Positions 1,745 to 6,816 of a stretch of 6,816 nucleotides of DNA are shown here, one piece after another. The stretch is from a virus. The position numbers and the translations under genes are program-made. The notes beneath the pieces are model-generated. The model saw only the letters and a program-made list of their open reading frames with translations, made no database searches and was not told where the DNA came from. How positions within the stretch are numbered: the stretch's first letter is position 1; the number at the start of each line of letters is the position of its first letter. Location of the stretch: the UHGV virus genome UHGV-0373539; one strand, written 5' to 3'.

Positions 1745-1800
1745 CTGCCGGCTTCTTTTTTTTGGGGGTGTACTCTTGTTGCAAAATCGCAACGCAGCGG
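1745..1800 (+). promoter_or_regulatory. Candidate plus-strand origin core (pII nick/binding region), diverged from Ff
   Basis: TACTCTTGTTGCAAAATCGCAAC resembles f1 GACTCTTGTTCCAAACTGGAACAAC. Small hairpin GTTGC/GCAAC at 1778-1793, preceded by a T-run (TTCTTTTTTTT). The upstream Ff hairpin D inverted repeat is not recognisable, so the nick site is uncertain. Confidence 0.4.
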
Positions 1801-1934
1801 GGGTTAAATCATGCTGCACGAAAGTCTCACTTTCGGGATTTTGGTTTTTGGTTTTCTGCTGCGGAGTCAGGCGGGGCGGGGTGACGTGCAGTGTATGTAA
1901 TACTGCACGTTTGTCTCAATCTGATACCTCTCTA

Positions 1935-2132
1935 CTAAACGTCTCCTTTCTTTTTAAGCTCTTTTATCATTTTCTTTTCTGCTAATTCTGTATAGTTTTC
2001 AATGACATAGTTAAGTAAATCTGTCCATGTGACCTGTACGCCTGTACTTGCACTAATCCTGATCGCAGTATCACTCAGGTTTTTCTTTTTCTCGGTGGTG
2101 ATACTGGCTGTTGTCCTAACTGGTTTTTTCAT
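1935..2132 (-). CDS. Hypothetical small basic protein (65 aa) encoded antisense in the intergenic region; possible ribbon-helix-helix-like DNA-binding regulator
   Basis: Minus-strand ORF MKKPVRTTASITTEKKKNLSDTAIRISASTGVQVTWTDLLNYVIENYTELAEKKMIKELKKKGDV. ATG at 2132-2130 has an AAAGG SD about 8 nt upstream on the minus strand. The 87-aa form in the ORF track starts at a TTG with no SD. Lys-rich; the strand / helix / G-x-T turn / helix pattern is loosely CopG/Arc-like (inference only). Confidence 0.4.
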   Translation of the reverse strand: MKKPVRTTASITTEKKKNLSDTAIRISASTGVQVTWTDLLNYVIENYTELAEKKMIKELKKKGDV

Positions 2133-2286: not shown

Positions 2287-2303
2287 ATCACTAAGGGATG
2301 CGT

Positions 2304-3338
2304 ATGATTGATTGGGTTACAGCCGTCTTGCCTTGTCTGCATGTGCCTGTTGATGCTGGTCGCGTCCTCTCTGTTGCGCCGGATGGCTCTGTAGAATGGG
2401 AATCAGTAAAGTTTTCCCGCGTTACTGGCTCCTTTGAAAGCTCCATCAGTGTACGTTCGCAGGGTTCTGACGGTAATGGGAAAGCCACTCATTTATACGT
2501 TGATGGTAACCCGTCAAAGTGGTTGCAGGGTCACAATATCGTTGGAAGCGACGATCTCAACGGCCTTATGATTGCTTTTTACGCTCGTATGTTGTCACTA
2601 CTCAACATACCTCACCATCTGGAATCGTATCGCCAGGTGCTTTCTGGTCAGTACGAGTTAAAGCGCGTTGACGTTAACTACATGTTTGAGCTTCCTACGC
2701 TCATTGATGTACGGTCATGGTTACATGCTGCTGAGTTCAAGGCTAAGACTCGCCACGGGCGCCCGGCAACTGCAAAGGGCACTCTGTACTTTGGTAAAAA
2801 TTCTCGCCGTTGGTCTATTAAGGCTTACAGCAAATATGATGAAGTTAATTGCGGGAAAAAAGCTCATGGCGTTCCCGAAGAAATTAAGAAAACTGGCCTT
2901 GTTGAATGGTCTAAAAATAAATTACGTCTAGAATTAACATTACGCGCATTGCAGCTTACTGATATTAATTTAAACTTTGCTAAAAACTGGTCTACTGAAA
3001 CTGCATATACTGTTTTTAAAGAATATATGGGGCGTATCGAAATGAGCGGAAATACTTTACTTACTGATACTCAAGTTATTAATTTACCGTCTGCGCTACG
3101 TATGACTTATGTGTGCTGGAAACAGGGTATTCGTGTAACCGATATGGTTTCTCGCGCCACTTATTTTCGTCACCGCAAGGCTTTAAAAGAATTCGGTATT
3201 GATATTGCTGTTACTGTTGATCGTGTTGATAATAGCAACGTTGTTCCGTTAATCCGTGTCTTAGAGGCTAAACCTGCCTCTATTCCTTCTCAATATGATA
3301 ATTTAATATTTTCATCTAATCGTGTATCAAGTTTCTAA
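2304..3338 (+). CDS. II: Gene II protein, rolling-circle replication initiator (nickase); alternative start ATG 2298
   Basis: ORF ends TAA 3336-3338. MIDWV.. start matches M13 pII MIDML.. and has SD AAGGG at 2293-2297 with 6-nt spacing; the ATG at 2298 abuts the SD. Motifs shared with M13 pII as recalled: KWLQGHNIVGSDDL (M13 KVLQGHNVFGTTDL) and NVVPLIRV (M13 NVVPLVRF). About 344 aa versus about 410 aa in Ff. Confidence 0.88.
   Translation: MIDWVTAVLPCLHVPVDAGRVLSVAPDGSVEWESVKFSRVTGSFESSISVRSQGSDGNGKATHLYVDGNPSKWLQGHNIVGSDDLNGLMIAFYARMLSLLNIPHHLESYRQVLSGQYELKRVDVNYMFELPTLIDVRSWLHAAEFKAKTRHGRPATAKGTLYFGKNSRRWSIKAYSKYDEVNCGKKAHGVPEEIKKTGLVEWSKNKLRLELTLRALQLTDINLNFAKNWSTETAYTVFKEYMGRIEMSGNTLLTDTQVINLPSALRMTYVCWKQGIRVTDMVSRATYFRHRKALKEFGIDIAVTVDRVDNSNVVPLIRVLEAKPASIPSQYDNLIFSSNRVSSF
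3027..3338 (+). CDS. X: Candidate gene X (in-frame internal restart within gene II, C-terminal ~100 aa); start uncertain
   Basis: By analogy with Ff, where pX is the C-terminal ~111 aa of pII. In-frame ATGs at 3027, 3042, 3102 and 3144; none has a strong SD. 3027 was chosen because it gives a size closest to Ff pX. Confidence 0.3.
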   Translation: MGRIEMSGNTLLTDTQVINLPSALRMTYVCWKQGIRVTDMVSRATYFRHRKALKEFGIDIAVTVDRVDNSNVVPLIRVLEAKPASIPSQYDNLIFSSNRVSSF

Positions 3339-5493: not shown

Positions 5494-5843
5494 TGCCAGC
5501 TTTATTAGGTATTCCGGCTTTAATTCGTTTCATAATGGGGCTTGTGCCTCTTGCTATTGGTTATTTTGCTAAGTTCTTAGGCAAAATTATTACCCGTAAT
5601 GGCTTGATGGCTGCTGCCTTAATTGGTGCGATCCTTTCATTTGTCACCTTAGCAATTCAGCTTTTAGGCGATGCTTTATCTTCTGCAATGGGCGGAATGC
5701 CTGCTGATTTTGGCAATTTAATGTCCTCTGTATTACCTGATGGCACAACAACTTGTATTACAGTAATTATGACTACAAGAATAGCGGTCTTTGTTTTCGA
5801 TATTAAAGATCGCTTACTCGGCATTGCCAATAAGGTAATTTGA
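5493..5843 (+). CDS. VI: Gene VI minor coat protein
   Basis: 116-aa hydrophobic protein [13 protein letters not shown].. resembling M13 pVI (MPVLLGIPLLLRF..., ..FIFDVK..) as recalled. ATG overlaps the gene III stop (TAATG). SD AAAGGTGA upstream. Confidence 0.92.
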
Positions 5844-5844
5844 T

Positions 5845-6816
5845 ATGGCTGTTTATGTTGTTACCGGAAAATTAGGCGCAGGCAAGACGCTTGTAGCTGT
5901 ATCGCGTATACAAAGGACTTTAGCTAAAGGTGGTATTGTTGCCACCAATCTAAATTTAAAGCTTCATCATTTCCCGCAGGTAGGCAGATATGCAAAACAA
6001 TGTCGTGTTATGCGCATTGCAGACAAGCCCACTTTAGAGGATTTAGAGGCCATTGGTCGCGGCAATCTTTCTTATGATGAATCAAAAAACGGCCTTATTG
6101 TTTTAGATGAGTGTGGTACGTGGTTTAATTCCCGTAACTGGAGTGATAAAAGTCGCCAGCCTGTTATAGACTGGTTTTTACATGCCCGTAAATTAGGCTG
6201 GGATGTAATTTTTATTATTCAGGATATTTCCCTGATGGATAAGCAGGCACGCGAGGCTTTAGCCGAGCATGTTGTTTATTGCCGTCGATTAGATAAATTA
6301 AATATACCTATCATTGGTGGTTTAATATCGGTTCTTTCAGGTGGTAGATTGCCATTACCAAAAATTCACTTTGGTATTGTTAAATATGGTGATAATCCTC
6401 AGTCATTAACTGTAGATAAATGGATTTATACTGGTACAGATTTATATGCTGCTTACGATACTAAGCAGATATTTACCAGTGACCGTGAATTAAGCCCGCC
6501 ATTCTGCCCGCTTTCGCCTTATTACACTCATGGCATATTTGCCGTTAAAAGGGATGCTAAATATTATATGCGTATGACAAAAATCTATTTTAAGAAGATG
6601 AATCGTGTTTGGTTAATGGCTTCCTTTCTTGCTCTTGGTGCTGGCGTAGGGTTTTTTTATAAATCTCGCCAGATAAATGAGCAACTAGCAAATATGCCTG
6701 TAGCGTCTGCTCAGGCTAATACCACTAAAACAGATCACACCCTTGATGAATTGCCACGATTATCGATCAACTCATTTGCACAAATGGGTTATGATGTGAA
6801 TGTAAATTTCAAAGAT
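5845..6816 (+). CDS. I: Gene I assembly ATPase (pI), 5' portion; ORF runs off the window end and continues at 1-126
   Basis: ATG at 5845, 1 nt after the gene VI stop, with AAGG SD. N-terminus MAVYVVTGKLGAGKTLVAVSRIQ carries a Walker A motif (GKLGAGKT) and closely matches M13 pI (MAVYFVTGKLGSGKTLVSVGKIQ). Open to the last base of the window. Confidence 0.93.
   Translation, partial: MAVYVVTGKLGAGKTLVAVSRIQRTLAKGGIVATNLNLKLHHFPQVGRYAKQCRVMRIADKPTLEDLEAIGRGNLSYDESKNGLIVLDECGTWFNSRNWSDKSRQPVIDWFLHARKLGWDVIFIIQDISLMDKQAREALAEHVVYCRRLDKLNIPIIGGLISVLSGGRLPLPKIHFGIVKYGDNPQSLTVDKWIYTGTDLYAAYDTKQIFTSDRELSPPFCPLSPYYTHGIFAVKRDAKYYMRMTKIYFKKMNRVWLMASFLALGAGVGFFYKSRQINEQLANMPVASAQANTTKTDHTLDELPRLSINSFAQMGYDVNVNFKD
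6568..6816 (+). CDS. XI: Candidate gene XI (in-frame internal start within gene I), partial
   Basis: In-frame ATGs at 6568 and 6574 giving MRMTKIYFKKMNRVW.. align with the M13 pXI start (MKLTKIYLKK..) as recalled. AAGGG about 14 nt upstream. Followed by a hydrophobic membrane segment. Confidence 0.45.
   Translation, partial: MRMTKIYFKKMNRVWLMASFLALGAGVGFFYKSRQINEQLANMPVASAQANTTKTDHTLDELPRLSINSFAQMGYDVNVNFKD

Follow-up and report, generated by a model that had tools for sequence, protein, structure and literature searches.

Plus-strand origins of filamentous phages and related replicons

In the Ff phages, the viral strand is nicked in the loop of the first hairpin of the origin, at CTTT^AATA (PMC11765958). 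In the GenBank record of phage IKe (X02139, positions 6554-6599), the viral-strand origin stem-loops are given as GAGTCCACTATGTTTAATAGTGGACTC and TTGTTGCATTTTGCAAC, and they end 2 nt before a 65-aa antisense ORF that is divergent from gII. The ori(+) of CTXphi, located in ig-1 beside rstR, is a multi-hairpin region of more than 100 bp in which accessory DNA flanks the cleavage site, with the nick in the loop of the second hairpin and a dependence on HU, and the origin of plasmid pKYM is bipartite, consisting of an initiator-binding core and an HU-bound enhancer (PMC4439123).

An origin core is an element of the kind expected in the intergenic region of a filamentous phage, and it had not previously been located in the I2-2-like phage group, for which the GenBank records annotate only the morphogenetic signal in this region. 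The original I2-2 paper reportedly found no homology to the Ff and IKe origins. The present analysis assigns a location to the plus-strand origin of the replication module that I2-2 has in common with the UPphi-type phages; we consider it likely that positions 1814-1927 of the analysed DNA are the plus-strand (viral-strand) origin of the I2-2-type replication module.

Genome context of the locus and related genomes

The whole stretch of DNA analysed (hereafter the window) has a length of 6816 nt and is the complete genome of an I2-2-like (Lineavirus) filamentous phage with the Ff gene order, sharing 97% identity with I2-2 in the intergenic region. The following features surround the locus:

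Gene IV: end at 1415
1416-1934: non-coding DNA
1935-2132 (-): conserved antisense gene of 65 aa (phrog_2503 match, E 2.7e-16)
2298-3338 (+): gII, the rolling-circle initiator expected to act on the origin (Pfam Phage_CRI 1e-77, G2P_X_C 2.3e-21)

The Phage_CRI and G2P_X_C domains form a two-domain architecture common to the pII proteins of the window, IKe and the UPphi-type prophages, with the window and IKe proteins being only about 24% identical over 159 aa. When the window gII was searched by tblastn against the annotated phage collection, the only matches were I2-2 and one distant virus; CTXphi was not among them, and the matches supplied no annotated origin for comparison.

The antisense gene is divergent from gII and its 3′ end abuts the origin core. 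It is intact at 65-66 aa in five lineages, and PGAP annotates it in relatives. This gene, whose family (phrog_2503) is of unknown function, is frameshifted in the published I2-2 sequence and therefore unannotated there. An unannotated 65-aa ORF occupies the same position in IKe (X02139 6601-6798, minus strand), and by eye the products of both genes look ribbon-helix-helix-like. Both are divergent from gII, an arrangement also seen for rstR and rstA in CTXphi. Between the divergent promoters, just 5′ of the gII ribosome-binding site, there is a perfect palindrome of 24 nt, TGTATACGTGTATACACGTATACA (2264-2287), which is probably an operator; other repeat units are found at this site in relatives, those in Klebsiella being of the GCATGC type.

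Farther upstream, the 77 nt at 1570-1646 of the window, flanked by GGGGGCC/GTGGGCC repeats, are missing from the published I2-2 sequence (X14336). This segment holds most of an Ff-like minus-origin hairpin, with 84.6% identity to f1 5625-5740, so the published I2-2 sequence may carry a deletion or a sequencing compression. An Rfam scan of 1400-2320 gave only sub-threshold spurious matches, located on the packaging hairpin.

Several more diverged genomes of the I2-2 class were found, namely the viral contigs L046 and L050 and two records deposited as plasmids. The 6814-bp Klebsiella record NZ_CP132687.1 (L003) is the replicative form of an I2-2-like filamentous phage, and the 14.4-kb E. coli record NZ_CP098188.1 (L004) is a filamentous-phage replicative form present as a head-to-tail dimer, in one copy of which the reading frames of gII, gI and gIV are split or truncated. 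The gII of L046 is 97% identical to that of the window, and identity in the region of interest is about 82% across five lineages.

A homologue of the Ff/IKe origin core

Two small hairpins, here referred to as hairpins 1 and 2, had been noticed between a plus-origin candidate and the antisense gene in an earlier reading of the window (hereafter the original prediction). Three features concern hairpin 2 and its 3′ flank:

1880-1931 (+): match to the covariance model of the Ff/IKe origin core (28.4 bits, E 5.9e-6, model positions 1-52 of 52)
1884-1910 (+): hairpin 2, predicted nick hairpin D′ (stem 1884-1892/1902-1910, loop GTATGTAAT)
1913-1927 (+): E′, imperfect inverted repeat GTCTCA-ATC-TGATAC, predicted pII-binding repeat and counterpart of Ff hairpin E

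Hairpin 2 lies exactly where it had been placed, with arms GTGCAGT (1886-1892) and ACTGCAC (1902-1908) followed by GTTTGTCTC, and it extends to a perfect 9-bp stem, ACGTGCAGT/ACTGCACGT (1884-1910), with a folding energy of -10.1 kcal/mol as single-stranded DNA. Only 0.27 perfect 9-bp hairpins are expected in the window under dinucleotide shuffling, compared to three raw occurrences observed, which represent two distinct elements.

About 30 distinct natural cores of the Ff/IKe type were collected and a covariance model was built from 16 D/E cores, the training set containing no hairpin-2 sequence. When the whole window was searched on both strands with the filters off, the best match on either strand was 1880-1931(+), which covers the model in full length without indels and in which 8 of the 8 D pairs and 5 of the 6 E pairs form. 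The combined alignment was assembled explicitly because the search with default filters missed the UPphi-type copies. In this MAFFT alignment, made from sequence alone and comprising 21 cores of the Ff/IKe, I2-2, UPphi and plasmid kinds, gaps are confined to the E loop, and the TAATA, TG.AC and T.GT columns are invariant. Pairing is possible in 94.2% of its cells, versus 76.9% in shuffled alignments and 24-45% when the partners are slid. Between the origin classes, changes on both sides of a pair affect four of the eight D pairs and three of the six E pairs; the swaps in the D stem amount to few independent events and are therefore support rather than proof. With compensatory changes in the stem and a constant TAATA in the loop, the origin core and its initiator have diverged together.

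When AATA is used as the anchor, hairpin 2 and its flank can be aligned position by position to the Ff and IKe cores. Like domain A of the Ff origin, the window has, on the viral (coding) strand, a stem of about 8 bp whose 11-nt loop ends with T^AATA just before the 3′ arm, then a 2-nt spacer and a second inverted repeat of the form TTGT-nnCA...TGnnAC, E′ starting 2 nt after hairpin 2. The genome also encodes a cognate initiator of the Phage_CRI/G2P family, and the initiators of Ff and of the window belong to the same Pfam families. The differences consist in the four swapped stem pairs (GTCCAC/GTGGAC in Ff, GTGCAG/CTGCAC in the window), in the sequence of E and in the absence of the AT-rich, IHF-binding domain B that follows the Ff core; in the window a gene ends at that place and the additional conserved DNA is found upstream instead. 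IKe has the same core architecture, and the order core, 65-aa antisense ORF, divergent promoters and gII is common to both phages, although the functional core of the window is of the hairpin-2 type and its IKe-type copy, described below, has lost the nick loop. CTXphi resembles the window in having a multi-hairpin origin next to a reverse-oriented regulator gene; it depends on HU and UvrD, and the likeness is one of analogy only and not of family membership.

It is therefore very probable that hairpin 2 is the nick hairpin of the rolling-circle plus-strand origin of this phage. The core at about 1880-1931, formed by hairpin 2 and the GTCTCA-ATC-TGATAC repeat, is a diverged homologue of the Ff/IKe origin core, hairpin 2 and its 3′ flank (to 1927) corresponding to the nick hairpin D and the initiator-binding repeat E. 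The original prediction regarded hairpin 2 as an accessory element beside an origin located elsewhere, a view that has to be replaced by one in which hairpin 2 with its flank is the core itself. The nick is predicted between T1898 and A1899 by homology to CTTT^AATA of Ff. By the same analogy, pII, an HUH nickase of the Phage_CRI/G2P family, would bind the inverted repeat on supercoiled replicative-form DNA, whereupon the hairpin-2 region would melt or be extruded and the plus strand would be nicked in the loop at T1898/A1899. The 3′-OH left by the nick would prime rolling-circle synthesis, and one round later pII would cut the regenerated hairpin and re-ligate the ends, releasing a single-stranded circle.

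Conservation of the core and its association with gII

The 31-nt block ACGTGCAGTGTATGTAATACTGCACGTTTGT, within which hairpin 2 lies, shows no variation among five diverged lineages, and the 3′ flank of the hairpin is likewise unchanged, with the surrounding DNA being about 82% identical. It is conservation and not folding energy that tells hairpin 2 from hairpin 1: a lack of conservation, named beforehand as speaking against both hairpins, was indeed observed for hairpin 1 (see below), and the opposite is strongly the case for hairpin 2.

The same hairpin 2 is present in the UPphi-type prophages, whose gII is only 57% identical to that of the window. In all 36 phage or prophage loci that carry it (36/36), a gII of the I2-2/UPphi type is located 397-674 nt downstream on the same strand; in the window the distance from the hairpin 2 core to gII is 419 nt, both being on the plus strand. 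The hairpin-2 pattern was missing from eight loci with a gII of 42-44% identity when the genome contigs were scanned by gII. In the UPphi class, hairpin 2 is followed after 3-4 nt by a second small hairpin reading GTCTCAttccTGAGAC or GTACCAttcgTGGTAC. The E′ variants GTCTCAttccTGAGAC, GTACCAttcgTGGTAC and GTGCCAtttTGTCAC track the subgroups of gII, and UPphi-class relatives include fully paired, covarying versions, E′ of the window having one mismatched pair. The element offers a short sequence signature by which origins could be annotated in UPphi-type prophages, a group common among clinical Enterobacterales.

The inner arms of the recombination sites dif, cer and psi are ATAA/TTAT. Hairpin 2 was considered as an XerCD/dif-like site and rejected, as by eye it has no such inner arms and occurs once per tandem prophage copy, within the phage and beside gII. 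UPphi relatives do integrate at dif (PMC7307601).

The R1 repeat, the spacer and hairpin 1

Four further features lie upstream of the core:

1814-1829 (+): R1, direct repeat CTGCACGAAAGTCTCA, which repeats CTGCACGTTTGTCTCA (1903-1918)
1819-1835 (+): hairpin 1, CGAAAGT/CTC/ACTTTCG, real in the window but not maintained in relatives
1836-1858 (+): T-rich tract, (T4-5 G2) x 3, segment of the spacer of constant length that separates R1 from the nick hairpin
1859-1883 (+): G-rich part of the spacer, with CAGGCGGG (1868-1875) invariant in the five-lineage alignment

R1 is a copy of the right half of the core, that is, of the 3′ arm of the nick hairpin and the 5′ half of E′, the shared motif being CTGCACGnnnGTCTCA (at 1814 and 1903). 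These are the only two occurrences of the pattern CTGCACGNNNGTCTCA in the window, where 0.01 would be expected. In L050 the two repeat copies are identical at 16 of 17 nt, and in the Klebsiella phage L003 both copies are changed (GTGTCA and GTGCCA). The start-to-start distance between the two copies is 89, 89, 89 and 88 bp in the window, L050, L004 and L003, respectively, with spacers that differ in sequence, although in four lineages of about 80% identity this constancy could partly reflect a plain lack of indels. A metagenome scan with the I2-2-class hairpin sequence added only one duplicate and one small element, so the sample for the spacing stays at four lineages.

Homology among the five lineages starts abruptly at about 1815, that is, at R1, and this position can therefore be taken as the left edge of the replication module of the I2-2-class lineages. 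The T-rich tract is located where the original prediction had put it; the T fraction over 1838-1858 is 0.67, and the T-richness is kept among the lineages while the sequence varies.

R1 is missing from the UPphi-class phages and from the small plasmids described below, though both possess hairpin 2 and E′, and therefore it is not required for a working core. We infer that R1 and the spacer are an accessory upstream part of the origin, in the simplest case a second pII site at a fixed distance. R1 would then act like an enhancer located 5′ of the core, and a host architectural protein might bind the spacer. Such a combination of core and accessory region resembles pKYM, with the differences that the pKYM enhancer is downstream of the core and that its Rep belongs to Rep_1 and not to Phage_CRI.

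Hairpin 1 overlaps R1 and was found as originally drawn, with CGAAAGT (1819-1825), loop CTC and ACTTTCG (1829-1835) followed by GGATTTTGGTTTTTGGTTTTCT (1836-1857) and a folding energy of -6.1 kcal/mol as single-stranded DNA. A hairpin of this size is at chance level, since about 3.9 perfect 7-bp hairpins are obtained per dinucleotide shuffle against 13 raw ones in the window, several of them nested. In relatives ATTCTTG, ACTATCG or ATTTCCG stands in place of its 3′ arm, without any compensating change. The 5′ arm is invariant in three lineages, which is explained by its position inside R1 rather than by any role of hairpin 1, itself an incidental structure.

L004 also contains, at 7767-7800, a sequence nearly identical to the R1 motif (ACGAAAGTCTCAcatTTGAGACTTTTTTT), 234 bp upstream of the R1 of that phage (8001-8028).

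A relic of an IKe-type origin

One more feature lies to the left of the replication module:

1762-1797 (+): relic IKe-type origin, the second-best match of the covariance model (12.4 bits, E 0.056)

This element keeps the hairpin-E-like sequence ACTCTTGTTGCAAAATCGCAAC, and 19 model positions, corresponding to the nick loop, are missing. It is wholly absent from L046, L004 and L050, which are close relatives with the same gII. As homology among the lineages begins abruptly only at about 1815, the relic belongs to the IKe-like backbone. The plus-origin candidate of the original prediction, at about 1762-1797, coincides with this element and turned out to be an IKe-type hairpin-E remnant that has no nick loop and is not shared by L046, L004 and L050. 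A relic IKe-type half-origin beside a working core of another type bears physical witness to the exchange of replication modules that has been proposed for I2-2.

Alternative functions of the hairpins and the spacer

The original prediction was right in treating this region as replication-origin DNA rather than as a good terminator for the antisense ORF, while the geometry and the identity of the parts proved to be different. In particular, the two hairpins and the T-rich tract had been likened to the Ff domain B, i.e. to an IHF-binding enhancer beside a plus origin at about 1750-1800. The region does adjoin an Ff/IKe-like hairpin-E sequence (1772-1793) and a T-rich tract is present, but the element at 1762-1797 has no nick loop and is absent from the three relatives with the same gII, and hairpin 2 itself matches the origin core. 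Moreover, domain B is found 3′ of the core, whereas the tract of the window is 5′ of it and is G+T-rich rather than A+T-rich, with only 43% A+T over 1836-1884; the AT-rich stretch of about 100 bp expected directly 3′ of the core is not there, as the end of the antisense gene occupies this place. A scan for the IHF consensus WATCAANNNNTTR with at most one mismatch, which was a consensus scan only, gave no match in the intergenic region (1416-2297). A domain-B-like function is thus highly improbable. A better, though still low, probability can be given to a weak intrinsic terminator on the plus strand, made up of hairpin 1 (or of the stem AAAGUCUC/GGGAUUUU) and the U-rich tail, which would prevent transcription of gene IV from reading through into the origin and on, in antisense, into the reverse gene. 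The consensus scan does flag 1819-1835 and its tail as terminator-like, as had been suggested originally; some small hairpin followed by a U-rich stretch is found at R1 in every lineage, and the near-copy ACGAAAGTCTCAcatTTGAGACTTTTTTT of L004 forms a canonical terminator-like hairpin just after gene IV. Against this, the number of terminator-like sites (2 found versus 1.5 expected in shuffles) and the RNA fold (z -0.8 to -1.4) are no better than in shuffled sequence, the stem is AU-rich, contains wobble pairs and consumes part of the U-tract, and neither the identity of R1 with the core motif nor the fixed 88-89-bp spacing would be explained. Such a terminator is not exclusive of an origin at the same locus.

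Termination of transcripts on the other strand has to be weighed as well. Neither hairpin had been regarded originally as a convincing intrinsic terminator of the minus-strand ORF, and this is borne out by the minus strand reading UCACCCC after hairpin 2. With no intrinsic terminator available there for the antisense gene, the G/T-rich tract, C/A-rich in the minus-strand RNA, might serve as a Rho-utilisation site ending the antisense transcript just past the origin, with hairpin 2 being at most a pause or stability element. The minus-strand RNA of 1820-1897 has a rut-like composition (C 0.38, G 0.15) and lies directly downstream of the antisense stop codon at 1935. In addition, hairpin 2 of the UPphi class is followed on the minus strand by UUCUUUAUU and is intrinsic-terminator-like (-22 kcal/mol, z -3.75), which makes some termination function at this position plausible. 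The evidence from the window is one of composition only, and the invariance of hairpin 2, its presence in plasmids without such a gene and its homology to the Ff/IKe nick hairpins are left unexplained, so that we regard this account as rather unlikely to be the main one; as a secondary role, Rho-dependent termination of the antisense transcript is compatible with the locus being an origin. Far less credible is the idea that hairpin 2 is primarily a terminator or operator of the reverse regulator gene and not an origin element. Hairpin 2 is always just 3′ of a reverse gene and is followed by a minus-strand T-run in the UPphi class, but the window and the other I2-2-class phages have no U-tract there, a terminator would not keep the loop sequence invariant, and the hairpin is present in small plasmids without any gene of this kind. 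The reverse gene of the UPphi class encodes a 148-aa HTH_3 protein unrelated to the 65-aa phrog_2503 protein of the window, and as the hairpin is nevertheless identical, its reading as an operator of these regulators was rejected. The plus-strand origin therefore remains the preferred reading of hairpin 2 and its flank.

In L007 (4488-4529) and other UPphi-class loci, both hairpins and then a minus-strand T-run are located directly after an HTH repressor-like gene, and the origin core of this class may double as the terminator of that gene.

Copies of the core in small plasmids

Sequences 91-97% identical to 1885-1932 of the window were found in about 30 plasmids of E. coli, Salmonella and Klebsiella, with sizes of 1.4-2.3 kb. 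Two of them were examined in detail: L005 (NZ_CP041446.1, 2137 bp), a Rep_1 plasmid of the general pKYM type with a copy of hairpin 2, and L006 (NZ_CP028467.2, 1532 bp), which encodes a REP_ORF2-G2P protein unrelated to the Rep of L005. Only three segments are common to the small plasmids and the window, each of them a cis-acting site: the tip of the packaging signal (1419-1445), the minus origin (1542-1674) and hairpin 2 with E′ (1885-1932). Such a pattern is expected of elements that exploit phage functions. In both L005 and L006, a complete D/E core of the IKe type is located about 12 nt upstream of hairpin 2. These "non-mobilizable" plasmids, L107 among them, combine a single rep gene with four sites of phage type, namely the tip of a packaging signal, a minus origin resembling that of Ff/IKe, the complete IKe-type core and the hairpin-2-type core. 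No consistent clustering of GTATRC repeats was seen in the small plasmids.

In Shewanella, a rolling-circle plasmid has been demonstrated to behave as a satellite of an inovirus (bioRxiv 10.1101/2023.11.28.569023). The small plasmids described here look like natural phagemids or inovirus satellites, possibly usable by two helper families, and the hairpin-2 element thus also flags small plasmids that may hitch-hike on filamentous phages. As a tentative and rather speculative proposal, the I2-2-type origin may be bipartite in a way for which Ff-like phages offer no described precedent, the nickless R1, kept 88-89 bp upstream of the nick hairpin by the T/G-rich spacer, serving as a second initiator site with an upstream enhancing or looping function. 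Linked to this, the small plasmids, with their IKe-type and hairpin-2-type cores in tandem, may be natural phagemids that two families of filamentous phages can mobilise.

In the viral contigs L076, L079, L096-L098, L105 and L106, which carry loci of the Ff/IKe type, the similarity to the other cores ends precisely at the nick loop, with TTTAATAGTGGAC being kept and the left arm GTCCAC being replaced. Such endpoints would fit junctions made at the nick site.
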